From: a virus
DNA length: 64,000 bases
IMG/VR virus record: IMGVR_UViG_3300007734_000761
Coordinates: 64,001-128,000 of that record
Direction: 5' to 3' (one strand)
Shown: piece by piece, positions 9,479 through 54,489 of the stretch
Layout: the number at the start of each line of letters is the position of its first letter
Position numbering within the stretch: the stretch's first letter is position 1
The notes under the pieces: generated by a model
What the model saw: the letters and a program-made list of their open reading frames with translations, nothing else
The model's database searches: none
Told to the model about the DNA's origin: nothing
Made by a program: the position numbers and the translations under genes

Positions 9479-9484
9479 AACTAT

Positions 9485-33391: not shown

Positions 33392-35668
33392 CTAAATATT
33401 TGGTAAAGAATTAAATACAGTTAAAGGAGAAATAGATTTTTCACAAATATGTTGTTTATCTGTTCCTTTCCATATAGGACACCAATCCCAATCTCCAGGA
33501 TCAAAAGTAAAATTAACATTGTTCCAACATGAATTACAAGCATGTTCATTTTGAATTCTTATATTGTTACTTAAAAACTCATGGTCTTTTTGTGAGAAAC
33601 CACTTATCATTACTGTTTGTTTTCCTAAAGCCCAATTTATCCATGACAAACCTGAACTAAGTCCTATTAAAAATTTGGCGTTATATAAAATATCCATAGA
33701 TTCATTTAATGTTTTACCATGAATATTTAAATTACCTTTTATGTTGTATGGTTTACTTGTAAGAGTAACTACAGTGTAACCTAATTCACGCAACATTTTA
33801 GATAATACTACCCAACTATCATAAGGCCATTCTTTACAACCAGTTGTTGACTCAGGAGCTATAACTATATAATCAGCTTTTGTTGATTTAGGCTTTAAAG
33901 TAAAATTTATTCCATAGTTTAATTCTTTAAATTCTAAACCTAAAATATCAGATGCTGTTTTTTGTAAAGGCTGAGTATTTGGATAATTAGGATAATAATC
34001 AAACTTATCCCACTTTCCAGATTCTCCCTTCATCCATCCTATTCTATATACTACATAACATTCTGTAGAATTTCCAGGTTCTATAAATTCAATATCTTTA
34101 TAAGCATCTAAACCTTTAAACCAACTGTTATGGAATGTACTTAAAATTACTTTACAGTTATGTTTTTTAGCAAATTCAACGGCATATGGAGTCCAAGCAA
34201 CTGTGTCACCTATACTTTTTGATTCTAATCCAATTAATACACGTTTATTAGTTAAATTAAATTCATCTACAACACTTCCATTAACTTTAATTTTCCATTT
34301 AGTATAATATTTTCTAGAACATAAAGTCCACATATTATTTTTAATAGTATCTTTATGAATTACATTGTTATTTTCATCTAAAAATTCAATGTCGTATTTT
34401 TCATCAATGTCACCTATGATTTCAACTTTAGGACCATCAATATAACTAATTTTTATTTCATTTTTTTGAGGAATATAAGGATATTTTTTATTAAATTCTA
34501 ATATTGTTTTAAAACCAATTTCACCTATTTTCTCCCAGCTAAATTGTTCTCTTATTTTATTAGAATCTTCAATAGCATTTTTCTTTAAATCACTATTAAA
34601 GTTATATGCTAATCTCATTTTTTTAGATAAATCTTCAAAATCTGGTTCATAATAATTACCTGTATATCCATTAAAATGATTATATGAAGAATTACTTGCT
34701 GGTTTTTCGCCTAATATGTTTACTGGTATTCCTTTACCTTCTGCAAATTCTAATTGACCTGAGCAATTAGAATAAATTGATGGGATCCCACAAGCCATTG
34801 CTTCTATTAAAGGTAAGTTCCATCCTTCTGAACGAGCACAAGACAGAAATACATTACATGATTTTAGTATTTTAATGTATTCTTCTCTTTGAGGAAAATG
34901 AATTATTTTTATTCTTTCATCTTCTAAACCATAATATTTTAGTCTATTTTCTGTAGTTTCTAAATTGTCTCCTGAAAATGGATTATCTATAGAAACAATT
35001 AAGTCAACAGGTTCGTCTTTATCAAATGTTTTAAGAAATGTTTCAATAATTTCTTTAGTTGATTTTCTGTAATCCCATCTTCCTGCTAAAAAGAATTTAA
35101 ATCTACCATCTGAGGTTAACTCATGAGTAGTCTTTTCAGGAAAAAAGATATTAATATCAACTCCTTCAGGAACAACTTTGATTTTATCAGGATCATATCC
35201 TTGAGCAATAGTTACATCACGTTGCCATTTTGAAGGAACCCACATTTCATCAAATTCTTTTAATTTATTAAAGAAATTTTCGGGTTGAAGAGTAGTTTCC
35301 CATACATTATATGCGATTTTAGGTCCTTTATAATCATCGTAAAATAAATGATGGTCAGTTTCACATAAAACAATATTTAAATCTTGACGAAATTCTTTAG
35401 AATTATCAGGATAAATTTTATAATTACTTCTACTTCCATCATTATTCCAAAGAATTTGTTCATATAAAATAGATTTATCTACTTCATTAATATAAGGTTC
35501 ATTATTATGAGGAGTTTCATTATAACCATCCCAACTTTTTCCTATAGTAAAATTTCTAACTTTCAGTTGTAAATGTTTAGATATTTCTCTAAAAAAATCT
35601 CTAGTATGTTGATTATAACCTGTAGTTCCTATATAAGAACCATGTATATATACTTTGGGTTTATTCAT
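33392..35668 (-). CDS. Fusion: GT4 glycosyltransferase + Aah/TibC-like protein O-heptosyltransferase domain
   Basis: N-terminal half: TGY, WET, VPSKW, RWDYRK, SEGWNLPLIEAMACG (GT4). C-terminal half: SIGDTVAW, IGLSSGLSWINWALG..TVMISGFS...EF, CNSCWN...DWDWCP...C (iron-finger Cys pattern). Confidence 0.8.
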   Translation of the reverse strand: MNKPKVYIHGSYIGTTGYNQHTRDFFREISKHLQLKVRNFTIGKSWDGYNETPHNNEPYINEVDKSILYEQILWNNDGSRSNYKIYPDNSKEFRQDLNIVLCETDHHLFYDDYKGPKIAYNVWETTLQPENFFNKLKEFDEMWVPSKWQRDVTIAQGYDPDKIKVVPEGVDINIFFPEKTTHELTSDGRFKFFLAGRWDYRKSTKEIIETFLKTFDKDEPVDLIVSIDNPFSGDNLETTENRLKYYGLEDERIKIIHFPQREEYIKILKSCNVFLSCARSEGWNLPLIEAMACGIPSIYSNCSGQLEFAEGKGIPVNILGEKPASNSSYNHFNGYTGNYYEPDFEDLSKKMRLAYNFNSDLKKNAIEDSNKIREQFSWEKIGEIGFKTILEFNKKYPYIPQKNEIKISYIDGPKVEIIGDIDEKYDIEFLDENNNVIHKDTIKNNMWTLCSRKYYTKWKIKVNGSVVDEFNLTNKRVLIGLESKSIGDTVAWTPYAVEFAKKHNCKVILSTFHNSWFKGLDAYKDIEFIEPGNSTECYVVYRIGWMKGESGKWDKFDYYPNYPNTQPLQKTASDILGLEFKELNYGINFTLKPKSTKADYIVIAPESTTGCKEWPYDSWVVLSKMLRELGYTVVTLTSKPYNIKGNLNIHGKTLNESMDILYNAKFLIGLSSGLSWINWALGKQTVMISGFSQKDHEFLSNNIRIQNEHACNSCWNNVNFTFDPGDWDWCPIWKGTDKQHICEKSISPLTVFNSLPNI

Positions 35669-35676
35669 TTATAAAA

Positions 35677-36624
35677 TTAATTATATGTTATAACGTTTCT
35701 AGGTATACTATTAATAATAGTATTGTATTCTATAACTTCATCATTAAATATAACTTTAAAAGAATCAATATTTAAATCAAACCTTTGAGGAATTAAACTT
35801 TCTATATTATAAATTTCTTGATTATTAAGTAATACTTTTAAATTACCATCTTTTATATCATATAAAACAAAAGAAAATTTATCTACCCAATGATTAGATC
35901 CAAAGACAGTTTCTTCTTTAGTGCTAAAAAATATTTTATAATTTTCACTTTGAGAAAAATTAAATAAATTATTATCACACCCATTTATATATGTAATTAA
36001 ATCTTTAACGGGAAATTCTGATTTAGACATAGGAATGTCTTCTAATATAATCTCAATAAAGTCTTCAGCAAAACCATTTAGTCTTATATATTCGTCTTTA
36101 TTTATTTTACTTAAAAACTTTATTAAATTTTCTTTACCAAAATTTATAAAAAGAGGAGATACATTCCATTGATCAAGAGGATCATTAGGATTTATAGCAT
36201 GGTATGTAATATTTGTTTTATTATTTAATATGTCTTGGGTTAGTTTATCTGATACAATTATATCATAAGTAATATGGTAAAAAATATCATAATCATATGT
36301 TAATGCTATTTCTGATAATTTTTTCATTTGATATACTGCTGCCCAACCATAATCATCTATATCTCTATGAAGAATAATTTCTTTATCATATTGATTCTTT
36401 TGTTTCCACCAGAAAGTATTAGCTCTTTCGGGCCAATACAAAAGTGGGTTTTCTTTTGTTTGAAAATAAAAATCAAAGTGTTTAGTTACAGCGGGTTCAA
36501 GAGGAATACAACTATTTACCATTACATCTACTCCTAAAGATTTGAAAGTTTTAGCACCTTCTACAAGAACATGAATTTTTTCTGGAGTATCACAATAAGT
36601 GCTTACTAAAGCTATTTTTTTCAT
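35677..36624 (-). CDS. Putative glycosyltransferase-like protein
   Basis: ALVSTYCDT, DYGWAA, YDIFYHITYD; GT-A-like by appearance only; start MKKIAL at 36624. Confidence 0.35.
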   Translation of the reverse strand: MKKIALVSTYCDTPEKIHVLVEGAKTFKSLGVDVMVNSCIPLEPAVTKHFDFYFQTKENPLLYWPERANTFWWKQKNQYDKEIILHRDIDDYGWAAVYQMKKLSEIALTYDYDIFYHITYDIIVSDKLTQDILNNKTNITYHAINPNDPLDQWNVSPLFINFGKENLIKFLSKINKDEYIRLNGFAEDFIEIILEDIPMSKSEFPVKDLITYINGCDNNLFNFSQSENYKIFFSTKEETVFGSNHWVDKFSFVLYDIKDGNLKVLLNNQEIYNIESLIPQRFDLNIDSFKVIFNDEVIEYNTIINSIPRNVITYN

Positions 36625-36625
36625 T

Positions 36626-37210
36626 TTATTTTTGAATAAAACCAATCCCACCCCAATTAGAATCTGCTAAAAACCAAGTTTTTTCACCTTGTAATTCATT
36701 CCAAAAAGTATCAACAAAACATCCTTGAACATGGTGGTTTTCGGTATCTTTAATATCATGAAAACCAATCCATCCCCCAGGCTTAACAAATTCTTTATAC
36801 ATATGATAATCTAATTTTACACCTAAATGTGAATGATCACCATCAATAAATAAAAAGTCTAACTTTCTGTCTCCTATAATAGATTTAACAGAATTATACA
36901 TAGATTCAGCATGAGAATCTCCATCTAAAATATGAACATTTGATCCTAAGCTATAAAGTTTACTATTTCTAGCTTGAATATTAAAAGTATTTTTACCCCA
37001 CGGACCGTGAGCCCAATCTACACTTATTCGAAGACCATCAGGATCTGATACTCTGCTCCAACACACAAAAGTTCCTCCTTGATCTGTTCCTATTTCCATA
37101 AAATTTTTAACGTTTAATTTTTTTACAAATTCAAGAGCATTTTCAATTTCATAAGGATTTTGCATCATTCCTAAATGATAGGCTTCATCAATAATTTCTT
37201 TATTAGTCAT
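36626..37210 (-). CDS. Class I SAM methyltransferase (Methyltransf_24 / sugar O-methyltransferase-like)
   Basis: MEIGTDQGGT, LDFLFIDGDHS, VKPGGWIGFHD. Confidence 0.85.
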   Translation of the reverse strand: MTNKEIIDEAYHLGMMQNPYEIENALEFVKKLNVKNFMEIGTDQGGTFVCWSRVSDPDGLRISVDWAHGPWGKNTFNIQARNSKLYSLGSNVHILDGDSHAESMYNSVKSIIGDRKLDFLFIDGDHSHLGVKLDYHMYKEFVKPGGWIGFHDIKDTENHHVQGCFVDTFWNELQGEKTWFLADSNWGGIGFIQK

Positions 37211-37217
37211 ACTGGTT

Positions 37218-37246
37218 ATTATAATAATTTTATTTTATTTTTCCAA
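37218..37246 (-). promoter_or_regulatory. Class A promoter TTGGAA-N17-TATAAT
   Basis: Exact 17-nt spacer; -10 box 7 nt before the ATG. Confidence 0.6.
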
Positions 37247-37972
37247 ATTTAATTTAATATTGTTATAATCTTCAAATTTAGGATGAATTGCTATAAAATC
37301 AGAATTAAATTCAGTATTAGGAATAGGGTAAATTTTATATCCTATATTTTTTAAAAATTTAAATACATCATCTTGATATTCTGAGAGAGTTTCAAATAAT
37401 ATGATTGGATGATTTTGTTTAATTGTTTTTATGGCTCCTTGTAAAGTTTTAAGTTCATAGCCTTCTACATCTATTTTTATAAAATGAGGAGATAAATTAT
37501 AACTATCTAAGGTTTTTATGTTAATGTTATTTATTTCTAAATCATCTTCTAAAGATCTTCCACCATAGTTAATTACATCAACATTTCTATTTCCTTCCCA
37601 ATTAACACTACTGTGTTTCCATAAGTCTCCAAAACTACTTTTTTTATTGGTTTCTCCTAAGCCTACATTAAAACAAGTTATTTTATTATCTAATCCATTT
37701 AAAAATACATTTCCACAAAGTTGATTAAATAATGGGAGTTGAGGTTCAAAAGCATAAACTTGTTTAGAATAAAAACCAAAGTTTACAGTATGAAATCCCA
37801 TATGAGCTCCAATGTCTAAAACTACATAATGAGACTTTAATATAGATTTATATAATTCAATTATTTCTGGTTCCCAGATATGTTCGTTATAGATTCTATA
37901 TCCAATGAAATCTTTAGTATTAGTTAAAAAAGAACCATTATTAGTATTTACTATCCAGCAACCTTCTTTCAT
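37235..37972 (-). CDS. FkbM-family methyltransferase
   Basis: VLDIGAHMG, YAFEP, FIKIDVEGYE...GA..TI....P.I..E. Confidence 0.9.
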   Translation of the reverse strand: MKEGCWIVNTNNGSFLTNTKDFIGYRIYNEHIWEPEIIELYKSILKSHYVVLDIGAHMGFHTVNFGFYSKQVYAFEPQLPLFNQLCGNVFLNGLDNKITCFNVGLGETNKKSSFGDLWKHSSVNWEGNRNVDVINYGGRSLEDDLEINNINIKTLDSYNLSPHFIKIDVEGYELKTLQGAIKTIKQNHPIILFETLSEYQDDVFKFLKNIGYKIYPIPNTEFNSDFIAIHPKFEDYNNIKLNLEK

Positions 37973-37973
37973 A

Positions 37974-39194
37974 TTATTTCAACATATAATTATCAGCCTT
38001 TTTAACACTATTAGAATTATCAATCATTAAGTTTAATATTTCTGGGTTAATTAAATCAGGGTGTACCCACCAGTCTTCAAAAGTACTATTTTTATCTGGT
38101 GCGATGTCACCAACAACCATAATATATCCCTGATTAGTTAAAAATTGCCGTGATTTTTCTCTATAAAGTTTAGTGTTGTCAGCATAGTAATCATGTTCAT
38201 ATGTAATTGCAGCAAACTTGTATTTGTCAAAGGGAATTTGTTGTAATACTTTATATGTAATTTCTGCTGGTTCACAGTCTATTTGAAGATAATCTATATT
38301 GTGTTTAAAATTAAGATTATTAAATAATTCAGCATAATTTAATGTTAAAGCATCTTGAGTTAATGCTAAATTATTTCTTATTTTTTGGAATTTTTTTATT
38401 TCTTCGGGATTTATATCTATTGAAACTCCATTCCATTTAAATTCTTTTTCTAATAAATAAGTGTTATTATTTAGTATAGGATCAGCACAACCTATTTCTA
38501 CATATGTTCCTTCTTGTTTACCATCTAACATACTTAAAACAAACATATCTTGATAGGTTTGAGAGTAATTTTTTTCTATAGTGTCTGAATTTGCAAATTT
38601 ATACTTTAAATTTTTATGTTGATCTTTAGTATAAGGTAATTTATAAAATCTTTCACCGTTTAGTCCTGCTAAGTTTTTATGAGCTAATCTAGTATGTTCG
38701 TCTGTTAAATTATAGTTTTTAAGTAAATCTTCAAATAAAAATCTAGCCTCATTACAATTACCAACCCACCAAGTAGTTACAGCTTTTTGAAATTGAGGTA
38801 GAAAATTGTAATAATCTATATTAGTTAATGTTGGTTTATAATTATCTTTATATAATAAAGCCATACAAGCTGCTGTGTATGATTCTCTTCTATTTTGGTC
38901 ATTCTCTAAAAAAGAACTTAAAAAACACCAAGCTTCAGGTCTAGTAGGATTACAGTTAATAGCATTTAAAATAGCATTTTTTACAGATTTTGGTCGTCTT
39001 CCTATATATTTTATACACGATATTATTTTAAGTAAAGCTTCATAAACTAAATCTTTATCATTACTAAATTCAGCAGTTCTTAAATAATAAGTTAAAGCAG
39101 TAGCTTTATGATTTTCTAAATCATATTCATATCCTAACCAAAAATTAACTTCTGGGTCGTAAGGATTATTTATAAATTTTATTAAATTATCCAT
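37974..39194 (-). CDS. TPR-repeat + FkbM/Methyltransf_21-like fusion protein
   Basis: N-terminal TPR-like helices (ALTYYLRTAE, PTRPEAW); C-terminal YSQTYQD, YVEIG, NNTYLLE, IDYLQIDCE, EDWWVHP. Confidence 0.75.
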   Translation of the reverse strand: MDNLIKFINNPYDPEVNFWLGYEYDLENHKATALTYYLRTAEFSNDKDLVYEALLKIISCIKYIGRRPKSVKNAILNAINCNPTRPEAWCFLSSFLENDQNRRESYTAACMALLYKDNYKPTLTNIDYYNFLPQFQKAVTTWWVGNCNEARFLFEDLLKNYNLTDEHTRLAHKNLAGLNGERFYKLPYTKDQHKNLKYKFANSDTIEKNYSQTYQDMFVLSMLDGKQEGTYVEIGCADPILNNNTYLLEKEFKWNGVSIDINPEEIKKFQKIRNNLALTQDALTLNYAELFNNLNFKHNIDYLQIDCEPAEITYKVLQQIPFDKYKFAAITYEHDYYADNTKLYREKSRQFLTNQGYIMVVGDIAPDKNSTFEDWWVHPDLINPEILNLMIDNSNSVKKADNYMLK

Positions 39195-40170
39195 TTATTA
39201 TTTCTTCAAAAACTTTTTCAGGTATAGTTAAGGCAAAAGCAGCATTATCTTGAAATCCAAAAGTAATTACAATATTATTATCTATATTTGTTGCCCCACA
39301 AGCAAATTCTATTTTTGCGGTCATAAAATTAAAACTATCTGATGTTTTAACTATATTTCCTTGTTTATCCCATACTATTATTCTATGAGTATAAACAGCA
39401 TCTTTATTATTATTTTCATTACGCCATAAATCTACTTCATGAATTATTCCTATATCATATTTTTTCCAAGAAATAATTTGAGAATTGCCTCTAAGTTGAT
39501 AAGGAGTATTTATTTTAAATTCTTCACCTTGAAATGTTATTTCACTTTTTCCTGTAATAGGATCTACTTTTACTATTTGAGTTGGATTAGTCCATCTTAT
39601 ATAATGATAAGGCTTATCTAAGATAGGCATCCAATTTTTTTCACAGTAAGAATACTCATCTATAGGGGGTTGGATTCTTAATCTTGAAATTTCTTGAACA
39701 ATATCACCTTTAAATATGATTTGAGATAATTCCATTCTGCCTTCTCCATTAGGAGTAGTATCTCGTCTTACACCAGTTAAATATAATTTATTATCCCATT
39801 TAACTAAACGAGCATCTTCTAGTCCAACAAATTCCCAAATAGGAGTTTTGTCAAAATAACGTGTGTCTACTTTATAAGTTTTTTTTACAGATAAATCATT
39901 ATTCAAAACACATAAATAATTTATTGTTTTTAATCTAGCATCATCTTCTGGGTTTAAATAAGCTAAAGGTCCCCAATGAGACTGATATTTTTGTTCATTA
40001 GGGCAATGATACAAAGAATATTCTACATGTCTTACAACACATAGTATTTCATCATCTATAAAAATAGAAGGATTACATATACCTGTACCTCCTGTTAAAT
40101 CAGCAGATATTTTAAGAGGCATTATAGAACCTCCTTTATCTAAAACTAATTTTACTAAATTATCTATCAT
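39187..40170 (-). CDS. Five-bladed beta-propeller glycosidase/phosphorylase-like protein (GH130-like)
   Basis: NPSI, GLEDARL, EKNWMP, IEFACG, FGFQD. Confidence 0.65.
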   Translation of the reverse strand: MIDNLVKLVLDKGGSIMPLKISADLTGGTGICNPSIFIDDEILCVVRHVEYSLYHCPNEQKYQSHWGPLAYLNPEDDARLKTINYLCVLNNDLSVKKTYKVDTRYFDKTPIWEFVGLEDARLVKWDNKLYLTGVRRDTTPNGEGRMELSQIIFKGDIVQEISRLRIQPPIDEYSYCEKNWMPILDKPYHYIRWTNPTQIVKVDPITGKSEITFQGEEFKINTPYQLRGNSQIISWKKYDIGIIHEVDLWRNENNNKDAVYTHRIIVWDKQGNIVKTSDSFNFMTAKIEFACGATNIDNNIVITFGFQDNAAFALTIPEKVFEEIING

Positions 40171-40754
40171 TTGTAAGATTCACCTCCTGCCCAAAGTACT
40201 AAGCTTCTTCTTAAACCTGATGTTAATGGTGTTACTCTATGTAAAATAAAAGATGGAAATAAAACTACAGCTCCTTTTTTACGAGGAACAGCAAACGAAC
40301 CATTTCCAGGATGTAATTCTAAATCTCCACCAACATATTCATTAGGGTCTGATAATTGAACAACTACTGATACTTTTCTGTGGTTAATGCCATCAGGACC
40401 TATGTCTAAGTGCCAATCATAATGACCACCATTACCCTCATATTCTGTGTATTGAATATTATCTATAATTGTATGTAAATTAAATCCCCATAAAGTTTTA
40501 TTAGCTTCAGTAACATAACTAGTTATTCTATCATAAACCCATGCCCATTGTTGTTCATATGATAACCACTTAACATTACTTTTTCTTACTGATTCATTTG
40601 GATCGTTTCCAACAATCTGTGCTTTTTGAAATGAGTATTTTTTAGAATCTTTAATAATTTTATCTACTTCTTCTGAAGTAAATCCGTTTTCAAACCAATA
40701 ATAATTAGTTTGATTGATTTCACGATTAAGGGGAAATATAGGCTTTAATTCCAT
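40167..40754 (-). CDS. 2OG-Fe(II) oxygenase (prolyl-hydroxylase/PKHD-like)
   Basis: YDWHLD (HxD), RKVS, Y.GGDL, FPSF..HRVTP...G.R.SLV.W. Confidence 0.9.
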   Translation of the reverse strand: MELKPIFPLNREINQTNYYWFENGFTSEEVDKIIKDSKKYSFQKAQIVGNDPNESVRKSNVKWLSYEQQWAWVYDRITSYVTEANKTLWGFNLHTIIDNIQYTEYEGNGGHYDWHLDIGPDGINHRKVSVVVQLSDPNEYVGGDLELHPGNGSFAVPRKKGAVVLFPSFILHRVTPLTSGLRRSLVLWAGGESYK

Positions 40755-40761
40755 AACACAT

Positions 40762-40790
40762 ATTATAACATTTATTTTTTAAATAACCAA
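40762..40790 (-). promoter_or_regulatory. Class A promoter TTGGTT-N17-TATAAT with extended TG
   Basis: Exact 17-nt spacer; heads the modification-enzyme operon. Confidence 0.65.
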
Positions 40791-40793
40791 GTT

Positions 40794-41687
40794 TTATAAA
40801 CCAAATCTTCCTCTTATAGCATCCCAGTTTTGAGCTACTTCTCCAGCAGATAATTCTCTATCGTACATATGGAAAGCAGCAATGTTTCCTGTTAGTCGTC
40901 TAAAATCATATCTAGGGTCACCTCCTAATACTAAAGTATTACCTCCGTTATTTATAATTCCATTTCCTCCACCCGCTGTTCCTGATAAACTACCATTTAA
41001 ATAAATTTTTGTGGCTGTATTACTATATGTACCTACTACTTGATACCAGTTTCCTGCTGTTAAATTAACACCTGTAGTTGCTGCTATAATATTATAACTT
41101 CCTGGAGGATTAGCATTTACATAAAATGAAAGACTTGTAGAACCTAAAGTACCATTTGGATGAAGTAACCACATATTAGATGTTACCCAATCATCTGTAT
41201 TATAAGTTGATTGACCTGCTCCTGCTCCTATAGCCCAAGAACCATTAGCTTTTATCCATATTTCAACTGTAAACTCATTTAAAGGATTAGGACCAGGATT
41301 AGATCCTATATAATCATCAGCACCATCAAAAGTAAAAGATCCACCATTTGTAGGATCCCATCCTCCCCCATTATATAAAGTTCCATCATATGATGGAAAA
41401 CCTCCAGCAACGTCTGTTATACTAGTTCCAAATCCAGGATATGAACCTATAGTAGGCCAAGCATCATAGTTTAATATTAACCCAGATGTTACTATCCATT
41501 GTCCTGTATATCCATACCATTGGTTTGGAGAATAATTAGCACCTCCTGGATTTGTGGGTTGAATGTAACTATAGGCATTTAAAGCACCATAAGTTCCATT
41601 ATAAGCATCTTGTAAATTAAAACTACTACCAGCTCCAAATTCGGAACGAATTTGTCCATATGATATTTGTCCTGAGTAAGGTAACAT
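40794..41687 (-). CDS. LamG/ConA-like lectin-domain fibre tip adhesin
   Basis: FDGADDY, FTVEIWIK, WYQVVGTY, KIYLNG, YDRELSAGEV; short N-terminal attachment-like segment; follows the fibre gene (gp37/gp38-like order). Confidence 0.8.
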   Translation of the reverse strand: MLPYSGQISYGQIRSEFGAGSSFNLQDAYNGTYGALNAYSYIQPTNPGGANYSPNQWYGYTGQWIVTSGLILNYDAWPTIGSYPGFGTSITDVAGGFPSYDGTLYNGGGWDPTNGGSFTFDGADDYIGSNPGPNPLNEFTVEIWIKANGSWAIGAGAGQSTYNTDDWVTSNMWLLHPNGTLGSTSLSFYVNANPPGSYNIIAATTGVNLTAGNWYQVVGTYSNTATKIYLNGSLSGTAGGGNGIINNGGNTLVLGGDPRYDFRRLTGNIAAFHMYDRELSAGEVAQNWDAIRGRFGL

Positions 41688-44080: not shown

Positions 44081-44094
44081 TTATATATAAATAT

Positions 44095-47000: not shown

Positions 47001-50000
47001 TTCCTGATGAACCACTTGAACCTGATGTGCCACTACTACCTGATGAGCCACTTGTTCCGCTTGAACCTGAAGAACCTGATGTACCACTTGATCCACTTGT
47101 TCCACTTGAACCACTAGTACCGGATGAGCCTGAGCTTCCACTTGTACCAGAACTGCCTGAACTGCCTGAAGTTCCAGAAGATCCACTAGTTCCGCTTGAT
47201 CCTGAAGAACCTGATGTACCTGAAGTGCCATTAACACCACTTATACCTGAAGTACCTGATGATCCTGAAGATCCTGATGTACCCGAACTACCAGACGAAC
47301 CTGAAGTGCCTGAAGAACCTGATGTACCTGAGCTACCGCTAGTTCCTGATGAACCACTTGTTCCACTTGAACCTGAACTTCCTGATGTACCCGATGAACC
47401 ACTTGAGCCAGATGTACCTGAACTTCCGCTAGTTCCACTTGAACCTGAAGTTCCTGATGAACCTGACGAGCCACTAGTTCCAGATGAACCTGATGTTCCA
47501 CTTGAACCACTTGTTCCACTAGAGCCTGATGTTCCTGAAGAACCTGAAGAACCACTTGTTCCAGATGAACCACTTGAACCAGATGTTCCTGAACTACCAC
47601 TAGTACCTGATGTACCATTTACTCCGCTTATACCTGATGTTCCACTTGAACCTGATGAACCTGATGTTCCACTAGAACCAGATGATCCTGATGTACCTGA
47701 ACTACCACTTGAGCCAGATGTTCCAGAAGACCCACTAGAACCTGAAGTTCCACTTGAACCTGATGTGCCTGAACTGCCAGAAGTTCCTGAGCTTCCACTT
47801 GTACCTGAAGTTCCTGAGCTACCGCTTGAACCTGAAGTACCTGAACTACCTGATGTTCCAGATGAACCGCTTGAACCTGAAGTGCCCGATGAACCGCTTG
47901 AACCTGATGTTCCGCTTGAACCTGAAGTGCCTGAGCTGCCACTTGAACCTGAGGTTCCGCTTGAACCTGATGTTCCTGAGGTGCCATTTACACCACTTAT
48001 ACCTGATGTACCAGATGAACCTGAAGTACCTGATGAGCCACTTGAACCACTAGTACCAGAAGAACCTGAACTACCTGATGTTCCTGAACTTCCACTAGTT
48101 CCACTTGAACCTGATGTTCCTGAACTTCCTGAAGTACCTGATGATCCCGAAGAACCACTAGTACCAGAAGAACCTGATGAACCTGATGTGCCAGAGCTAC
48201 CTGATGTGCCTGAACTACCTGAAGTACCACTAGAGCCTGATGTTCCTGAAGAACCTGAAGAACCACTTGTGCCTGATGAACCTGAACTTCCACTTGTACC
48301 AGAAGAACCTGATGAACCAGATGTGCCTGATGAACCTGAACTTCCACTTGTACCAGAAGATCCACTAGATCCTGAGGTGCCAGATGAACCTGAAGTGCCA
48401 GAAGAACCACTAGTACCTGATGTACCATTTACTCCGCTTATACCTGATGTTCCTGATGAACCTGATGTTCCTGATGAACCTGATGTTCCTGATGAACCAG
48501 AGCTACCTGAAGTTCCTGATGAACCTGATGTTCCACTAGAACCACTTGTTCCACTTGATCCTGAACTACCACTAGTACCTGAAGATCCACTTGAGCCACT
48601 AGTACCTGAAGAACCTGAAGTACCTGAAGAACCACTAGTACCTGAACTACCACTTGAGCCAGATGTTCCTGAGCTACCTGATGAACCTGATGTACCTGAA
48701 GATCCACTAGTACCTGAAGAGCCTGAAGTACCTGAAGAACCAGAGCTACCTGAAGTACCTGATGAACCTGATGAACCTGAAGTACCACTTGAACCTGATG
48801 TTCCTGAACTGCCAGAAGTACCTGAGCTTCCACTTGAACCTGAAGTTCCTGAACTGCCAGAAGTACCTGAGCTTCCACTTGAACCTGAAGTTCCTGAACT
48901 GCCAGAAGTACCTGAGCTTCCACTTGAACCTGACGTACCACTTGAGCCAGAAGTTCCAGAAGTTCCATTAACTCCACTTATACCTGAAGTGCCTGAAGAT
49001 CCGGATGTACCTGAACTGCCACTTGAGCCAGATGTACCTGAAGAGCCACTTGAACCTGATGTTCCTGATGAACCTGAAGATCCTGAAGTACCTGATGAAC
49101 CGCTTGTTCCACTAGAACCAGATGATCCTGATGTACCTGAACTGCCAGAAGTACCACTTGAACCTGAAGAACCACTTGTTCCACTTGAACCACTTGAACC
49201 TGAGGTGCCACTTGATCCGCTTGTTCCGCTAGAACCCGATGTTCCTGATGAACCACTTGTTCCTGATGAACCGCTTGAACCTGAAGTACCTGATGTACCA
49301 TTTACTCCGCTTATACCTGAAGTACCTGAAGATCCTGATGTACCTGAAGAACCTGATGTTCCTGAAGATCCACTTGAGCCAGATGTTCCTGATGAACCTG
49401 AGCTGCCTGAGGTTCCTGAAGAACCGCTAGTACCGCTTGAACCTGAACTTCCACTTGTTCCACTTGAACCTGATGAACCGGAAGTACCACTACTACCGCT
49501 TGTACCTGATGAACCTGATGATCCTGAAGTACCAGATGAGCCACTTGTTCCTGAAGAACCAGATGTCCCTGAACTTCCTGAAGAACCTGATGTTCCACTT
49601 GAACCACTTGTTCCTGATGAACCAGAGCTGCCTGATGTTCCTGAAGAACCTGAGGTTCCTGATGAGCCACTTGTTCCTGATGAACCTGAAGATCCTGAAG
49701 TACCTGATGAACCGCTTGTTCCTGATGAACCACTAGTACCTGAAGTACCATCTACTCCACTTATACCTGATGTACCACTAGATCCTGAAGATCCTGAAGT
49801 ACCTGATGAACCACTTGAGCCAGATGTTCCTGATGAACCTGATGAACCGCTAGTACCACTTGAACCTGAAGTACCAGATGAACCTGATGTTCCAGAAGAA
49901 CCACTAGTACCTGATGATCCACTAGATCCTGAAGTACCAGATGAACCTGATGAACCTGAGGTTCCTGAAGAACCGCTAGTTCCACTTGAACCTGAGGTTC

Positions 50001-53000
50001 CACTAGAACCCGATGAACCTGAAGTTCCTGAACTTCCTGATGAACCTGATGTGCCGCTTGAACCGCTAGTACCTGATGAACCTGATGTTCCTGATGAGCC
50101 ACTAGTTCCTGAAGAACCGCTTGAACCTGAGGTGCCACTTGAACCACTAGATCCTGAAGTGCCAGATGAACCTGAAGAGCCTGAAGTACCAGATGAACCT
50201 GACGTTCCAGATGAACCTGAAGTTCCAGATGTACCATTTACACCACTTATACCTGATGTACCACTAGATCCTGAAGATCCTGAAGTACCTGATGAACCTG
50301 AAGAACCTGATGTTCCTGAAGAACCTGAGGTTCCTGAAGAACCGCTTGAGCCAGAGGAACCTGAAGATCCGCTTGTTCCACTTGAACCTGAAGACCCAGA
50401 TGTTCCTGATGAACCTGAACTTCCTGAAGTGCCACTTGAACCAGATGTTCCGGATGAACCACTTGTACCACTTGAACCTGAAGAACCTGAGGTTCCAGAT
50501 GAACCTGATGATCCTGAAGTGCCACTACTTCCACTAGTTCCTGAAGAGCCTGAAGTACCAGATGATCCTGAAGATCCTGAAGTTCCACTTGAACCTGAAG
50601 AACCTGAGGTGCCACTTGAACCTGAAGAACCTGAGGTACCACTTGAACCAGAAGTTCCGCTTGAGCCACTAGTACCTGACGAACCGCTAGTGCCTGATGT
50701 ACCATCCACACCACTTATACCTGAAGTACCTGAGCTACCTGAAGTTCCGGATGAACCACTTGAACCAGAAGTTCCGGATGAACCTGAAGTACCACTAGAG
50801 CCTGATGTTCCTGATGAACCACTTGAACCACTTGTTCCGGATGATCCGGAAGTGCCTGATGAACCACTAGTACCTGACGATCCGCTTGAACCAGACGTTC
50901 CTGATGAACCACTTGAACCAGAAGTTCCTGAAGAACCGCTAGTTCCACTTGATCCTGAAGTGCCACTTGAACCTGAAGATCCTGATGTTCCTGATGAACC
51001 ATTTGTTCCACTAGAACCAGATGATCCTGATGTGCCAGATGAACCTGAACTACCACTTGTTCCACTTGAACCTGAAGAACCTGAAGTTCCAGATGAACCT
51101 GATGAGCCACTGGTTCCTGAAGAACCAGAAGTTCCGCTTGAGCCACTAGTACCTGATGTACCGTCAACTCCACTTATACCTGAAGTACCTGAGCTACCGC
51201 TCGTACCTGATGAACCACTTGAGCCAGATGTACCACTAGATCCTGAAGAACCTGATGTTCCACTAGAACCGCTAGTTCCAGATGAGCCTGATGTACCTGA
51301 ACTTCCACTAGTTCCTGATGAACCACTTGAACCACTTGAACCAGAAGTTCCTGAAGAACCACTTGTTCCACTTGAACCACTTGTTCCTGATGAACCTGAC
51401 GTTCCAGATGAACCAGATGTCCCTGAACTTCCTGAAGAACCTGATGTTCCACTTGAACCTGAAGTACCAGATGAACCTGAACTTCCACTAGTTCCTGAAG
51501 AACCAGAAGATCCTGAAGTACCTGATGAACCTGACGTTCCAGATGAACCTGACGTTCCAGATGAACCTGAGCTACCTGCGGTTCCTGAAGAACCACTTGT
51601 CCCAGATGAACCAGAAGTACCTGACGTACCATCAACTCCACTTATACCTGAAGTGCCGCTTGAACCTGAAGTACCAGATGAACCTGAACTTCCGCTAGTT
51701 CCTGATGAACCACTTGAGCCAGATGTACCAGAAGAACCGCTTGTTCCACTTGAACCTGATGTTCCTGAAGAACCTGATGAACCCGAGGTACCTGAACTGC
51801 CACTAGTACCTGATGAACCTGAAGTGCCAGATGAACCTGATGAACCTGAAGTTCCTGAAGAACCTGAGCTGCCTGATGTGCCAGATGAACCTGAGGTTCC
51901 TGAAGAACCACTAGAACCAGACGTTCCTGAGCTGCCTGATGTACCACTAGAACCGCTAGTGCCTGATGAACCTGAAGATCCTGAAGTGCCTGATGAGCCA
52001 CTTGAACCACTTGTACCACTTGAACCTGAAGATCCTGAAGTACCTGATGAACCAGAGGTGCCACTTGAGCCGCTAGTTCCGGATGAACCAGAAGTACCTG
52101 ACGTGCCATCTACTCCACTTATACCTGAAGTACCTGAGCTGCCTGAACTACCTGATGTGCCTGAACTACCAGAGCTGCCTGATGTGCCTGAACTGCCGCT
52201 TGAACCAGATGTACCTGATGAACCACTAGTACCTGAACTACCTGACGTACCACTTGAGCCAGAAGATCCTGAAGTACCAGAACTACCTGACGAACCACTA
52301 GTCCCACTTGAACCTGAACTTCCACTTGTTCCTGATGAACCTGAACTTCCTGACGTACCACTTGAGCCAGAAGTGCCAGAACTACCTGATGTTCCTGATG
52401 AACCACTTGAGCCAGATGTACCTGATGTGCCATCTACTCCACTTATACCTGAAGTACCACTACTTCCTGAGGAACCAGAAGTACCTGATGAACCACTTGT
52501 TCCTGATGAACCTGAAGTGCCACTTGATCCACTAGAACCTGATGTTCCTGAAGAACCTGACGTACCACTTGAGCCGCTTGAACCACTTGTTCCACTTGAA
52601 CCTGATGAACCTGAAGTACCACTAGAACCAGATGTTCCACTACTACCACTTGTACCATCAATCCCAGAAGTACCTGATGAACCACTTGTGCCTGAACTAC
52701 CTGATGTTCCTGATGTTCCGTTTATACCTGAAATTCCAGAAGTTCCTGAGCTGCCACTTGAACCTGAAGTACCACTAGAACCAGAACTACCTGATGTTCC
52801 TGAACTTCCTGAAGAACCTGAGGTTCCACTACTACCACTTGTACCTGATGATCCTGAACTACCTGATGTTCCTGAACTGCCGCTCGTTCCTGATGAACCT
52901 GATGTACCTGAAGATCCTGAAGTGCCTGATGAGCCTGAAGATCCTGAAGTACCGGAACTACCTGAAGTGCCACTTGAACCTGATGTACCACTTGAACCAC

Positions 53001-54489
53001 TAGTGCCTGAGGATCCTGAAGTACCTGATGAGCCACTAGAACCAGAAGTTCCTGAACTACCTGAAGTTCCTGATGAACCTGATGAACCATCAACTCCACT
53101 TAAACCTGAAGTACCCGAAGTACCAGATGAGCCTGATGAGCCACTAGTACCTGATGATCCACTTGTTCCTGAAGAACCTGAACTACCTGACGTGCCACTT
53201 GAGCCAGATGTTCCCGAACTTCCACTTGAACCACTTGTACCTGATGAACCTGAGCTTCCTGAAGTACCAGACGAACCTGATGTTCCTGAACTTCCGCTAG
53301 TTCCACTTGAACCTGAACTTCCACTAGTTCCTGAAGAACCGCTTGAGCCAGATGTTCCCGAACTTCCACTAGTTCCTGAAGAACCGCTTGAGCCAGATGT
53401 ACCTGATGAACCACTTGTTCCACTACTTCCTGAAGTGCCAGATGAGCCTGAGCTACCTGAAGTACCAGATGAACCACTTGTTCCTGAGCTTCCGCTTGTA
53501 CCGGATGAACCTGATGAACCGCTAGTTCCACTTGAACCTGAACTTCCGCTAGTTCCTGAAGAACCACTTGAGCCAGATGTACCTGACGAACCGCTTGTTC
53601 CTGAAGAACCACTTGTTCCACTTGAACCAGATGAACCAGATGTTCCTGAGCTTCCACTTGTTCCACTTGAACCTGAAGTACCTGAAGAACCACTTGAACC
53701 TGAAGTACCTGAAGAACCACTTGAGCCAGATGTGCCTGATGAACCGCTAGTTCCTGATGAACCAGATGTTCCACTTGTTCCGCTTGAACCTGATGTTCCT
53801 GAAGTGCCAGATGAACCGCTAGTACCTGATGAACCACTAGAACCTGATGTTCCACTTGAACCACTTGTACCTGATGAACCAGATGTGCCTGATGAACCTG
53901 AGCTGCCACTTGTACCAGATGAGCCAGATGTTCCTGATGAACCTGACGTGCCTGAACTACCCGAAGTGCCAGAAGAACCAGATGTACCATTTGTACCTGA
54001 AGTACCGTTTGTGCCAGATGTTCCACTAGTTCCTGAAGTTCCTGAACTACCACTAGTTCCTGAGGTTCCTGAACTGCCACTAGTACCTGATGTTCCACTT
54101 GTGCCAGATGTACTAAAATCAGCTATTGGAGCATATGTAAATTGTCCAGAACTAGTATCATATGTTATAAAATAACCTGATGAAGAGTTTTCACTTACTC
54201 CTAAAACTATAAAAGGATTTGAACCTGAAATTAATAATGATCCAGTAATTACAGCTGAACCTGAAAACGGAAATCCTGCTCCTCCACTACCTGAAGAAGC
54301 TATTCCATAACTAACTAATCCTGTTGCTGGATCATATGTTAAATTATATGAGGCTGAAAGATCATTTTCTACTCCAATAAGTGTTAATGGGTTTGAGCCT
54401 GAAATTATTACACTCTCACTAATGCTACCTGTAATAGATAAATCATTAGATAAATACCACCCTAACTGTTCTGGTCTTACTCTTGCCAT
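44095..54489 (-). CDS. Giant Gly-Ser/Thr-Ser repeat fibre protein (3464 aa)
   Basis: Unique N-terminus, ~3138-aa (GSS/GTS)n region, C-terminal fibre-type domain KNFDIIHP...LEGPE.GVYVRG...ERKDV; same strand and packing as neighbours. Confidence 0.85.
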   Translation of the reverse strand: MARVRPEQLGWYLSNDLSITGSISESVIISGSNPLTLIGVENDLSASYNLTYDPATGLVSYGIASSGSGGAGFPFSGSAVITGSLLISGSNPFIVLGVSENSSSGYFITYDTSSGQFTYAPIADFSTSGTSGTSGTSGSSGTSGTSGSSGTSGTSGTSGTNGTSGTNGTSGSSGTSGSSGTSGSSGTSGSSGTSGSSGSSGTSGSSGTSGSSGTSGSSGSSGTSGSSGTSGTSGSSGTSGTSGSSGTSGSSGTSGSSGSSGTSGSSGSSGTSGSSGTSGSSGTSGSSGSSGTSGSSGTSGSSGTSGSSGSSGTSGSSGSSGTSGSSGSSGTSGSSGTSGSSGTSGSSGSSGTSGSSGTSGSSGTSGSSGSSGTSGSSGTSGSSGSSGTSGSSGSSGTSGSSGTSGSSGTSGSSGSSGTSGSSGSSGTSGSSGTSGSSGSSGTSGSSGTSGSSGSSGTSGTSGLSGVDGSSGSSGTSGSSGTSGSSGSSGTSGSSGTSGSSGTSGSSGTSGSSGTSGSSGSSGTSGSSGTSGSSGTSGSSGTSGSSGSSGTSGSSGTSGSSGSSGTSGSSGSSGTSGSSGSSGTSGISGINGTSGTSGSSGTSGSSGTSGIDGTSGSSGTSGSSGTSGSSGSSGTSGSSGSSGTSGSSGTSGSSGSSGTSGSSGTSGSSGTSGSSGSSGTSGISGVDGTSGTSGSSGSSGTSGSSGTSGSSGTSGSSGSSGTSGSSGSSGTSGSSGSSGTSGSSGSSGTSGSSGTSGSSGTSGSSGSSGTSGSSGSSGTSGSSGSSGTSGISGVDGTSGTSGSSGTSGSSGTSGSSGTSGSSGSSGTSGSSGSSGTSGSSGSSGTSGSSGTSGSSGTSGSSGSSGTSGSSGTSGSSGSSGTSGSSGSSGTSGSSGTSGSSGTSGSSGSSGTSGSSGTSGSSGTSGSSGSSGTSGSSGSSGTSGSSGTSGISGVDGTSGTSGSSGTSGSSGTAGSSGSSGTSGSSGTSGSSGTSGSSGSSGTSGSSGSSGTSGSSGTSGSSGSSGTSGSSGTSGSSGTSGSSGTSGSSGTSGSSGSSGSSGTSGSSGTSGSSGTSGSSGTSGSSGSSGTSGSSGSSGTSGSSGTSGISGVDGTSGTSGSSGTSGSSGTSGSSGSSGTSGSSGSSGTSGSSGSSGTSGSSGSSGTNGSSGTSGSSGSSGTSGSSGTSGSSGTSGSSGSSGTSGSSGSSGTSGSSGTSGSSGTSGSSGSSGTSGSSGTSGSSGTSGSSGSSGTSGSSGTSGISGVDGTSGTSGSSGTSGSSGTSGSSGTSGSSGSSGTSGSSGSSGTSGSSGSSGTSGSSGTSGSSGTSGSSGSSGTSGSSGSSGTSGSSGTSGSSGTSGSSGSSGTSGSSGSSGTSGSSGSSGSSGSSGTSGSSGTSGSSGSSGTSGSSGSSGTSGISGVNGTSGTSGSSGTSGSSGTSGSSGSSGTSGSSGSSGTSGSSGSSGTSGSSGTSGSSGTSGSSGTSGSSGSSGTSGSSGSSGTSGSSGTSGSSGTSGSSGSSGTSGSSGSSGTSGSSGTSGSSGTSGSSGTSGSSGSSGTSGSSGSSGTSGSSGSSGTSGISGVDGTSGTSGSSGTSGSSGTSGSSGSSGTSGSSGTSGSSGTSGSSGSSGTSGSSGTSGSSGSSGTSGSSGTSGSSGTSGSSGSSGTSGSSGTSGSSGSSGTSGSSGSSGTSGSSGTSGSSGSSGTSGSSGSSGTSGSSGTSGSSGTSGISGVNGTSGTSGSSGSSGTSGSSGTSGSSGTSGSSGTSGSSGSSGTSGSSGSSGTSGSSGTSGSSGSSGTSGSSGTSGSSGSSGTSGSSGSSGTSGSSGSSGTSGSSGTSGISGVNGTSGTSGSSGTSGSSGSSGTSGSSGTSGSSGSSGTSGSSGTSGSSGSSGTSGSSGTSGSSGTSGSSGSSGTSGSSGSSGTSGSSGTSGSSGTSGSSGSSGTSGSSGSSGTSGSSGTSGSSGTSGSSGSSGTSGSSGSSGTSGSSGTSGSSGTSGSSGSSGTSGSSGTSGSSGTSGISGVNGTSGTSGSSGTSGSSGTSGSSGSSGTSGSSGSSGTSGSSGSSGTSGSSGSSGTSGSSGSSGTSGSSGTSGSSGTSGSSGTSGSSGSSGTSGSSGSSGTSGSSGTSGSSGTSGSSGTSGSSGSSGTSGSSGSSGTSGSSGTSGISGVNGTSGTSGSSGTSGSSGSSGTSGSSGTSGSSGSSGTSGSSGSSGTSGSSGTSGSSGSSGTSGTSGSSGTSGSSGTSGSSGTSGSSGSSGTSGSSGSSGTSGSSGSSGTSGSSGSSGTSGISGVNGTSGTSGSSGTSGSSGSSGTSGSSGSSGTSGSSGTSGSSGTSGSSGTSGSSGSSGTSGSSGTSGSSGTSGSSGSSGTSGSSGSSGTSGSSGTSGSSGTSGSSGTSGSSGSSGTSGSSGSSGTSGISGVNGTSGTSGSSGSSGTSGSSGTSGSSGSSGTSGSSGSSGTSGSSGTSGSSGTSGSSGSSGTSGSSGSSGTSGSSGSSGTSGSSGSSGTSGSSGTSGSSGTSGSSGSSGTSGSSGSSGTSGSSGTSGSSGSSGTSGSSGTSGSSGTSGSSGTSGSSGTSGISGVNGTSGTSGSSGTSGSSGTSGSSGTSGSSGSSGTSGSSGSSGTSGSSGTSGSSGTSGSSGSSGTSGSSGTSGSSGSSGTSGSSGSSGTSGSSGTSGSSGTSGSSGSSGTSGSSGSSGTSGSSGSSGTSGSSGTSGSSGTSGSSGSSGTSGSSGSSGTSGISGVNGTSGTSGSSGTSGSSGSSGTSGSSGSSGTSGSSGSSGTSGSSGSSGTSGSSGTSGSSGSSGTSGSSGSSGTSGSSGTSGSSGSSGTSGSSGSSGNSGASGTSGTSGSSGTSGSSGTSGSSGSSGTSGSSGSSGTSGSSGTSGSSGTSGSSGSSGTSGSSGSSGTSGSSGTSGSSGTSGSSGSSGTSGSSGSSGTSGSSGSSGTSGISGVNGTSGTSGSSGSSGTSGSSGSSGTSGSSGSSGTSGSSGSSGTSGSSGNSGTSGSSGTSGSSGTSGSSGSSGTSGSSGSSGTSGSSGSSGTSGSSGTSGSSGTSGSSGSSGTSGSSGSSGTSGSSGTSGSSGSSGTSGSSGSSGTSGSSGSSGTSGSSGTSGISGVNSTSGTSGSSGSSGTSGSSGSSGTSGSSGSSGTSGSSGSSGTSGSSGSSGSSGTSGSSGTSGSSGSSGTSGSSGSSGTSGSSGSSGTSGSSGSSGTSGASGASGTSGTSGSSGTSGSSGSSGTSGINGTSGSSGTSGSSGSSGTSGTTTITNNTDNYVLTATGTSTINGEANLTFDGSTLNLNSGANLNLAGGSIDTNGGAIDTGGGNLDLGAGSINPGGAVVGGVLNFDIINGNIKNFDIIHPTKKEPWRLRYSVLEGPEIGVYVRGRLTNNNTIELPYYWTDLVHEDSITVTLTSIGKPQNLYVISANPEKVTIGIEEGNIDCYYVVYGERKDVDKLITEYIRE
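44692..54105 (-). repeat. ~1046 x 9-nt degenerate repeat encoding Gly-(Ser/Thr)-Ser, punctuated by ~20 GISGV(D/N)G-type markers
   Basis: Direct reading; marker spacings of 279-630 nt are all multiples of 9. Confidence 0.95.

Follow-up and report, generated by a model that had tools for sequence, protein, structure and literature searches.

Why does a T4-like phage carry, between the genes for its neck and its tail sheath, a relative of the TibC and Aah autotransporter glycosyltransferases next to two genes for collagen-like fibres? We addressed this question in a stretch of 64,000 nucleotides (hereafter the window) that spans bases 64001-128000 of the IMG/VR record IMGVR_UViG_3300007734_000761, which is 176,311 bp long and rated complete by CheckV. 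A preliminary description of the window had proposed that the phage adds and methylates glycans on its own Ser/Thr-rich fibres. The analysis reported here places the C-terminal domain of the enzyme in the TibC/Aah family and finds its relatives beside genes for Gly-X-Y fibres in related phages as well as in distant lineages, and we consider the fibres with G-[ST]-S triplets its probable substrate.

The genes in question form an island of 21 kb between gp13/14/15-like neck genes and the sheath gene, and every one of them lies on the minus strand, as do all genes of the window placed below unless stated otherwise. In order of transcription, three neck genes (57935-54491) are followed by genes for a 3464-aa protein (54489-44095), a 797-aa collagen-like protein (44080-41687), a Laminin_G_3 protein, a 2-oxoglutarate (2OG)-Fe(II) oxygenase, proteins of 327 and 406 aa, an FkbM protein, a Methyltransf_24 protein, a 324-aa protein and, last before the sheath gene, a 758-aa fusion of a GT4 with a GT9-like domain (35668-33392). 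The gene inventory of the preliminary description was correct.

The fusion enzyme is a TibC/Aah relative by sequence

The C-terminal part of the 758-aa protein had been read as an Aah/TibC-like heptosyltransferase, and profile and structure searches agree. This domain (fusion residues 403-755; 33404-34462) scores 214.2 bits against the NCBIfam model TIGR04414 for TibC/Aah-type (BAHT) protein O-glycosyltransferases, with an equivalog cut-off of 200 and a match that covers model positions 10-371 of 374, compared with 32 bits for the lipopolysaccharide (LPS) heptosyltransferase I model. Its solved relatives are solely the TibC entries 4RAP and 4RB4 (E 1.5e-37). The structure paper on TibC assigns the role of catalytic base to Asp110 and donor binding to Thr226, Lys230 and Trp305, shows Arg286, the source of specificity for ADP-sugars, in contact with the donor adenine and a beta-hairpin thumb whose hydrophobic tip, Phe265-Val266, builds the dodecamer, and identifies position 300 as the one that sets heptose stereochemistry in TibC and Aah (PMC4358343). 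In our alignment D110, T226, K230 and W305 of TibC correspond to D488, T608, K612 and W676 of the fusion, and the iron-finger cysteines C339/342/358/370 to C711/714/730/742; position 300 is occupied by Ser, like in Aah. In 13 phage-type sequences the catalytic Asp, the donor-binding residues and the iron-finger Cys residues vary little or not at all. Judged by its sequence, the domain is a true member of the BAHT family.

The N-terminal half contributes a GT4 domain of the GT-B, retaining type (34520-35383), matched by PF00534 at 51.1 bits (Pfam gathering score 26.4) and carrying the EX7E motif as EGWNLPLIE at residue 281. No autotransporter gene was found beside the fusion gene; its neighbours encode collagen-like fibres.

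T4-like phages are established to glucosylate their DNA with GT-B enzymes (PMC12619734), and the transferases of the island might likewise act on phage DNA, in the fashion of the T4 glucosyltransferases. We regard this as very improbable: Pfam, PHROGs and NCBIfam returned no similarity to a DNA glucosyltransferase family, the iron finger and the N-terminal barrel mark protein-modifying BAHT enzymes, and the genes lie among structural, not replication, genes.

Two collagen-like fibres with different repeats

The giant (GSS/GTS)n protein and the Thr-rich collagen fibre noted earlier are both borne out by triplet counts and Pfam Collagen matches. The first (3464 aa; 44095-54489) begins with an N-terminal domain of about 128 aa, continues with two runs of Gly-X-Y repeat and ends in a domain of about 200 aa, which has a match in phrog_17490 (E 2.4e-43). 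Its repeat comprises 1045 Gly-X-Y triplets (GSS 568, GTS 427) with Ser (568) or Thr (432) at X and Ser (1019) at Y, is free of proline, and in one piece matches Pfam Collagen (PF01391) at 51.6 bits; the whole protein contains 1624 Ser and 463 Thr. If the repeat folds as a triple helix, a rise of 0.286 nm per residue gives the fibre a potential length of about 0.9 micrometre. That the gene is real and no assembly artefact follows from the recurrence of long frames with similar repeats in independent metagenome contigs, where the frames reach 3251, 3493 and more than 3160 aa and their repeats share 85-94% identity with those of the giant.

The second fibre (797 aa; 41687-44080) is Pro/Thr-rich and matches Pfam Collagen at 306.8 bits. 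Its 205 triplets carry Pro (79) or Ala (71) at X and Thr (96) or Gln (88) at Y, with just 7 prolines at Y, and would extend over about 0.18 micrometre. Its C-terminal residues 702-761 form an endosialidase-type S74 intramolecular chaperone domain (PF13884, Peptidase_S74; 51.7 bits, cut-off 22). These two are the sole Gly-X-Y genes of the genome, and both proteins are almost without Lys.

The adjoining gene encodes a Laminin_G_3 protein with a concanavalin-like lectin fold (297 aa; 40794-41687; Pfam 79.5 bits) that matches a PHROG virion structural protein (E 1e-15) and is probably structural. Of the earlier reading as a lectin tip, the lectin part thus has a family match, while the protein may or may not stand at the tip of a fibre. 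Neither this lectin nor the C-terminal domain of the giant fibre gave a useful match among solved structures.

Further features of the giant gene deserve mention. The sequence GISGV(D/N) interrupts its repeat 17 times between residues 681 and 3114, at a spacing of 108-210 residues, with the Asp forms closer to the N-terminus and the Asn forms closer to the C-terminus. An antisense open reading frame (ORF) of 3099 aa (44876-54175, plus strand) was considered as a gene and rejected as a low-complexity shadow of the giant repeat. The record of Microcystis phage Mel-JY01 seems to have been caught likewise, since two hypothetical proteins of the other strand are annotated there in place of the Gly-X-Y frame with which the record starts (L002 2-3049, plus strand).

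The enzyme and G-[ST]-S fibres recur together

A single scan of IMG/VR yielded 142 contigs with a relative of the TibC-like domain (55-92% identity), from which 80 loci were kept. In 76 of the 80, a single ORF encodes both the GT4 and the TibC domain, and in nearly all loci the sheath gene follows this fusion directly. A Gly-X-Y ORF is visible in 17 of the 28 loci that have at least 5 kb upstream. Three of the loci that showed none (L007, L008 and L026) were followed further upstream: there L008 and L026 carry frames of the G-[ST]-S type with 3251 and 3493 aa, respectively, and L007 has a Gly-X-Y frame of 662 aa whose match is weaker and which the contig end truncates. Three of the loci that showed Pro-type fibres alone (L048, L057 and L020) likewise have G-[ST]-S frames further upstream, of up to 3160 aa. 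G-[ST]-S fibre genes are present wherever upstream DNA suffices. In Mel-JY01, a GT4-FkbM-TibC fusion directly follows a G-[TS]-S ORF and a gene for a Ser-rich structural protein. Flavobacterium phage vB_FspM_immuto, whose sheath is 46% identical to that of the window, encodes neither a TibC-like enzyme nor such fibres.

The association extends well beyond these relatives. A quick IQ-TREE maximum-likelihood tree of 53 TibC-like domains sets the phage enzymes apart from the classical autotransporter enzymes. The classical bacterial clade (Acetobacteraceae, Trinickia, Lentisphaerota) has a collagen-like neighbour in 0 of 21 members, and one of them, L110, adjoins an autotransporter of the AIDA type (254 bits). 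A second clade (Shimodaira-Hasegawa-like approximate likelihood ratio test 99) contains every one of the 20 rows that have a collagen neighbour. Divergent contigs of this second clade, with enzymes 33-40% identical to the domain of the window, encode Pfam-Collagen proteins beside the enzyme; they were binned to Lentimicrobiaceae, Bacteroides, Arenicellales, other Gammaproteobacteria, Schekmanbacteria and Nitrosotalea, and also include a huge phage and Mel-JY01. In every such contig the collagen triplets have Ser/Thr at X and Ser at Y, and in L130, L106, L104, L105 and L148 collagen-like genes of the G-[ST]-S type accompany the enzyme away from any sheath gene. The co-occurrence of the transferase with Ser/Thr-rich Gly-X-Y fibre genes, which the preliminary description had proposed as a check, is thus found in related phages and distant lineages alike.

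Shared ancestry of a gene cassette alone is hard-pressed to explain these data, because the same motif adjoins the same enzyme clade across such divergent contigs. A common acceptor-like motif beside one enzyme clade over such distances is, among the sequence comparisons, the strongest point for the fibres as substrate.

One such arrangement is that of L130 (5649-16918), a 256-kb contig binned to Lentimicrobiaceae that may belong to a bacterium or a jumbo phage. Its enzyme is 34% identical to that of the window, and the gene order reads collagen, GT4-TibC fusion, collagen, two LamG genes, one further gene and collagen.

An oxygenase that follows the proline-containing fibre

The prolyl 4-hydroxylase (P4H)-like 2OG-Fe(II) oxygenase (195 aa; 40167-40754) matches PF13640 (2OG-FeII_Oxy_3) at 56 bits (cut-off 27) and is the sole PF13640 gene in the genome. 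Its iron triad is formed by H115-L-D117 and a later His in 'ILHRV', and its nearest relatives in the PDB are PKHD-type hydroxylases of unknown substrate (E 1e-10). In 21 loci a Gly-X-Y ORF is visible upstream of the fusion, and among these an oxygenase homologue occurs in all 12 that show Pro-containing fibres and in none of the 9 that show just Pro-free fibres (Fisher p = 3.4e-6). After loci were collapsed at a TibC-domain identity of at least 90%, the comparison stood at 8 clusters against 5, none of them mixed, and the oxygenase-plus and oxygenase-minus states interleave on the TibC-domain tree. The oxygenase tracks the proline-containing fibre, not the glycan, a relation that the preliminary description had overlooked.

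This link supports prolyl hydroxylation of the second fibre, for which the oxygenase is a candidate hydroxylase, and thereby also the wider idea that enzymes of the island act on its fibres. The prolines of the second fibre are mostly at X, whereas animal P4H uses the Y position. With so strict an association, a function that can be put to the test is now proposed for one of the numerous orphan 2OG oxygenases in aquatic phages.

Predicted sugar-handling and methylating enzymes of the island

The other genes of the island are predicted from Pfam and Foldseek matches to encode sugar-handling or methylating enzymes. The 327-aa protein (39187-40170), previously described as a beta-propeller, is modelled by AlphaFold with moderate confidence as a five-bladed propeller of the GH130 type (mean predicted local distance difference test (pLDDT) 67, predicted template modelling score (pTM) 0.72). 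For this model, Foldseek ranks nothing but GH130 mannoside phosphorylases or synthases and Leishmania MPT GDP-mannose mannosyltransferases at the top (E 1e-7, TM-score 0.5-0.58); Pfam GH130 (PF04041) matches weakly, far below its cut-off (E 0.055). On this model the protein is a candidate mannoside phosphorylase, synthase or transferase. The 406-aa protein (37974-39194) had been taken for a TPR-methyltransferase, of which both parts find weak matches: its C-terminal half is weakly FkbM-like (PF05050, E 4.5e-4, below cut-off), and TPR_17 matches at E 0.04. Six related loci carry its gene together with the GH130-like one.

The FkbM and Methyltransf_24 assignments are firm. The FkbM-family methyltransferase (245 aa; 37235-37972) scores 63.5 bits against PF05050 and 87.7 bits against TIGR01444, and this free-standing gene has a homologue in 0 of the 80 related loci. 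The Methyltransf_24 or CmcI-like O-methyltransferase (194 aa; 36626-37210) scores 56.3 bits against PF13578 and also matches PF04989, the rhamnosyl O-methyltransferase/CmcI family (E 8e-5). The 324-aa protein (35677-36651) belongs to no Pfam family. It had been called a putative glycosyltransferase, and its model (pLDDT 84.5) combines a fold like that of GT-A nucleotide-sugar transferases with a beta-sandwich behind it; the structural matches are weak (E about 1e-3, TM-score 0.3-0.48), among them the LH3 collagen glycosyltransferase domain, Fringe, GlcAT-P and glycogenin; PBCV-1 A64R, a capsid glycosyltransferase, is also weakly matched.

A survey of 74 representative proteins encoded between fibres and fusion across the related loci found 6 FkbM proteins and 6 P4H-like oxygenases, besides GT2, GT4, GT25 and Methyltransf_24 proteins; enzymes that build or tailor glycans predominate. 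Single cases are a UDP-galactopyranose mutase (GLF), an epimerase, a DegT aminotransferase, a carbamoyltransferase and a sulfotransferase with adenosine 5'-phosphosulfate (APS) kinase. This cargo suggests sulfated, carbamoylated or amino-sugar glycans in some of the phages. The enzyme set varies between close relatives, as it does in surface-glycan loci of the hypervariable kind. A tryptophan-halogenase-like protein (E 7e-115) was also noticed in the cargo of relatives (loci L004-L083).

Such a repertoire raises the possibility that the enzymes remodel the host envelope, be it LPS core, capsule or a surface protein, and could block superinfection or alter the cell surface. Genes for GT9, GT4, GT25, FkbM and sulfotransferase enzymes are typical of LPS and capsule loci, and PHROGs places the GT4 family under 'moron, auxiliary metabolic gene and host takeover'. 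We nevertheless hold an envelope target to be improbable, given that the C-terminal domain scores 214 bits with the model for protein-glycosylating Aah/TibC enzymes and 32 with that for LPS heptosyltransferase I, that the genes are co-directional in a late structural block between gp15 and sheath, and that the G-[ST]-S association recurs across lineages and the oxygenase tracks fibre composition.

Fibres or another virion protein as substrate

Several observations weigh against the fibres as substrate, or against details of the enzymology proposed here. The support for fibre modification is guilt by association, and linked cassette genes can co-occur without acting together. A subclade of phages (L095, L096, L136 and L140-L143) has separate GT4 and TibC-like genes and no fibre island; the two genes lie directly between gp15 and the sheath gene, with the TibC-like protein at 229 bits and a GT4 of another lineage than that of the window. 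No collagen gene was present in the 38 kb of the 173-kb L095 genome that were read around this copy. A huge-phage copy (L094) stands alone, too. The enzymes of the split-type phages, having no adjacent fibres, must therefore use another substrate, or one encoded far away; the fibres may not be the sole or original substrate. The models of the 327-aa and 324-aa proteins rest on shallow alignments of 6 and 12 sequences, respectively. Within the TibC-like domain, Arg286 is not kept: it is replaced by Ser657 in the fusion and by S, T, V or A in 12 of the 13 phage-type sequences. The thumb tip reads Asn646-Leu647 and is followed by a 9-residue deletion relative to TibC. The hairpin is short in all phage-type sequences, although many of them have an Ile-Ile tip. 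The loss of Arg286 and the short thumb imply that the donor may differ from that of TibC, and the quaternary structure probably does.

This makes some conserved virion protein a serious alternative as substrate. The GT4-TibC enzyme might modify sheath, tube, neck or capsid, with the fibres merely sharing an insertion hot spot and not being the substrate, or not the main one. The enzyme gene is joined to the sheath gene in nearly all loci, and the split-type phages retain GT4 and TibC between gp15 and sheath with no fibre gene in 38 kb; known virion glycosylation in phages affects the C-termini of capsid and tail-tube proteins (Freeman 2023, cited in PMC12619734). The split-type phages look derived, however, because they are nested inside the collagen-associated clade, and the divergent lineages L130, L106, L104, L105 and L148 pair the enzyme with G-[ST]-S genes away from any sheath gene. 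We thus rate this alternative as rather unlikely, if clearly ahead of an envelope or DNA target. That the fusion enzyme glycosylates some virion protein we regard as likely; the narrower proposal, that it glycosylates the G-[ST]-S fibres, is the one we favour from the sequence comparisons, with more reserve.

The donor sugar

No gene of a heptose pathway was found in this genome in searches for a SIS_2 (GmhA-type) isomerase, a PfkB kinase and an NTP_transferase, so donors must come from the host. The supply of host ADP-heptose is itself presumed, which counts as a weakness of the proposal. Split HldE genes directly follow the TibC-like gene in L096 (11094-12557) and are also present in L097 and L098; in L096 they match heptose-7-phosphate kinase (E 1.8e-32) and heptose-1-phosphate adenylyltransferase (E 2.5e-33) and are separated by an unknown gene of 116 aa. 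Because the L096 enzyme has the same Ser at the position of Arg286, ADP-heptose is favoured as the donor for the clade despite the loss of this residue.

Outside the window, a 769-aa ORF (G000:C1:144346-147414, L003) has a weak N-terminal CTP_transf_like match (cytidylyl/adenylyltransferase-like, 14.8 bits), and a 241-aa ORF (G000:C1:30525-30827) belongs to an epimerase family (48 bits); both could bear on sugar-nucleotide supply. A 639-aa cytidylyltransferase-like protein is annotated in Mel-JY01.

A proposed pathway and its timing

Starting from the genes that are present, from the families to which the enzymes belong and from their associations across genomes, we infer a substrate, a sugar, an order of steps and an effect on the virion as follows. 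The island, which is hypervariable, would be a phage-encoded system for post-translational modification of the phage's own fibres, lodged between gp15 and the sheath gene. Late in infection, two collagen-like trimeric fibres would be made, the second trimerising via its S74 chaperone domain. The cytoplasmic GT4-TibC fusion is predicted to add sugars, most likely heptose out of the host ADP-heptose pool, to Ser/Thr hydroxyls of G-[ST]-S triplets, and priming or extension of the glycan may fall to the GT4 domain together with the GT-A-like protein and the GH130-like propeller. O-Methylation would be the task of the FkbM and CmcI-like methyltransferases, and the P4H-like oxygenase would hydroxylate prolines of the second fibre. 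The proposal of the preliminary description that the phage glycosylates its own fibres gains from the TibC relationship, from the co-occurrence with fibres and from the sugar- and methyl-transferring enzymes, but it does not account for the fibre-less split-type subclade, and the promoter timing invoked in its favour finds no support.

According to that timing, enzyme genes under class A promoters would be expressed before a collagen fibre gene under a class B motif. The class A motif TTATAATA is present at both places named (37217-37224 and 40761-40768), and its 18 occurrences in the whole window are a modest enrichment over the 9.7 expected; the class B motif TATATATAA occurs at one site, which is the chance level. 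Neither is the T4 late motif TATAAATA enriched, and sigma-70-like sites are found at chance (69, with 55.8 +/- 8.7 expected) and terminator-like sites at the level of shuffled sequence. All island genes are co-directional inside the late structural block. These results lend no support to enzymes being made before their substrates.

It was also observed that TTATAATA stands 6-11 nt before four start codons (window positions 9484, 13661, 37217 and 40761, all on the minus strand). As this spacing is too short for a -10 element plus leader, the motif may be a translation-initiation signal or an unusual promoter.

Genomic setting

The record belongs to an uncultured, distant T4-like myovirus, and the window encodes sheath, tube, baseplate hub, PhoH and a Gp23-type capsid protein; the nearest named relatives are the phages immuto and Mel-JY01. 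The upstream border of the island is formed by three neck or tail-completion genes (533, 204 and 409 aa; 54491-57935), homologues of T4 gp13, gp14 and gp15, which in tblastn are 37%, 31% and 39% identical to an L095 gene with a Pfam Phage_T4_gp13 match and its 2 neighbours and include a match to a PHROG head-tail adaptor. The downstream border is the tail sheath gene (31138-33333; phrog_23, E 4.6e-75). The enzyme block gave no match by megablast against 50,697 phage records.

The sheath protein comprises 731 aa, compared with 571-590 aa in most relatives, and its alignment with the L095 sheath is split in two pieces, which implies an insertion of about 150 aa near residue 130. G+C content rises to 0.42-0.54 over the fibre genes (window 42001-54000), compared with 0.25-0.34 in flanking genes; Gly/Ser/Thr/Pro repeats demand such codons, and the rise is thus no sign of foreign origin.

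Comparison with known systems

Our literature searches, which combined TibC or heptosyltransferase with phage or collagen and also covered Mel-JY01, returned no paper linking BAHT enzymes to phages or collagen-like proteins, while automated JGI annotation already names many of these metagenomic proteins autotransporter O-heptosyltransferases. We put forward with considerable doubt that the collagen-associated TibC-like clade is an unrecognised family of collagen O-glycosyltransferases of many aquatic phages and some bacteria, in which dense Ser/Thr O-heptosylation would allow a wholly proline-free chain of more than 1000 triplets to fold as a stable triple helix. Were this true, the phage would bear a sugar-stabilised, sugar-coated filament of nearly 1 micrometre, several times the length of the virion, and a hypervariable glycan, set by interchangeable tailoring enzymes, would decide adhesion or host range. 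The cultured relative Mel-JY01 has the same pairing of enzyme and fibre, which makes bench work feasible.

The closest known systems are TibC-TibA and Aah-AIDA-I of E. coli (eLife 2014, PMC4358343), to which the phage enzyme is homologous over the whole length of the known enzymes and with which it shares a gene position next to a long, repetitive, Ser-rich presumed substrate. A further likeness is that a phage relative has ADP-heptose synthesis genes beside its TibC-like copy. The differences are that the substrate of TibC and Aah is the passenger of a beta-helical autotransporter, whereas the presumed phage substrate is a Gly-X-Y collagen-like fibre, and that the phage enzyme stands behind a GT4 domain, has Arg286 replaced and the thumb shortened, and forms a separate clade. 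If the proposed substrate is correct, the BAHT family gains a second substrate class.

With mycobacteriophages, whose glycosyltransferases are described as modifying the C-termini of their own capsid and tail-tube proteins (Freeman 2023, cited in PMC12619734), the system shares the idea of phage enzymes acting on the phage's own structural proteins. The mycobacteriophage enzymes are of other families, the targets are not collagen-like fibres, and no BAHT domain, hydroxylase or methyltransferase island is known from these phages. Virion glycosylation, experimentally shown so far in mycobacteriophages, would on the reading preferred here reach a large group of aquatic T4-like phages, represented by the 142 related contigs.

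A glycosylated collagen-like filament of bacterial type is also found in the exosporium of Bacillus, where BclA has Gly-X-Thr repeats whose Thr residues carry O-linked, partly methylated sugars. The filament of BclA stands on the spore surface, its repeats contain proline, and its glycan is made by rhamnose/anthrose pathway enzymes and not by a BAHT enzyme; in the phage, the predicted glycan would be built by a BAHT enzyme on a virion. The proline-free giant would, if so modified, be a naturally occurring case in which to ask whether glycosylation does the work of proline or hydroxyproline in the stability of the collagen helix, a question that bears on collagen biophysics and on designed biomaterials.

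Mimivirus has collagen-like proteins together with L230, a hydroxylase/glycosyltransferase that, like human LH3, acts by lysyl hydroxylation and glucosylation of the resulting hydroxylysine. The likeness to the island lies in a virus collagen accompanied by a 2OG oxygenase and a transferase of the virus, the activity here being predicted, whereas the phage oxygenase is P4H/PKHD-like, its fibres are almost free of Lys, and Mimivirus is a giant virus of eukaryotes.

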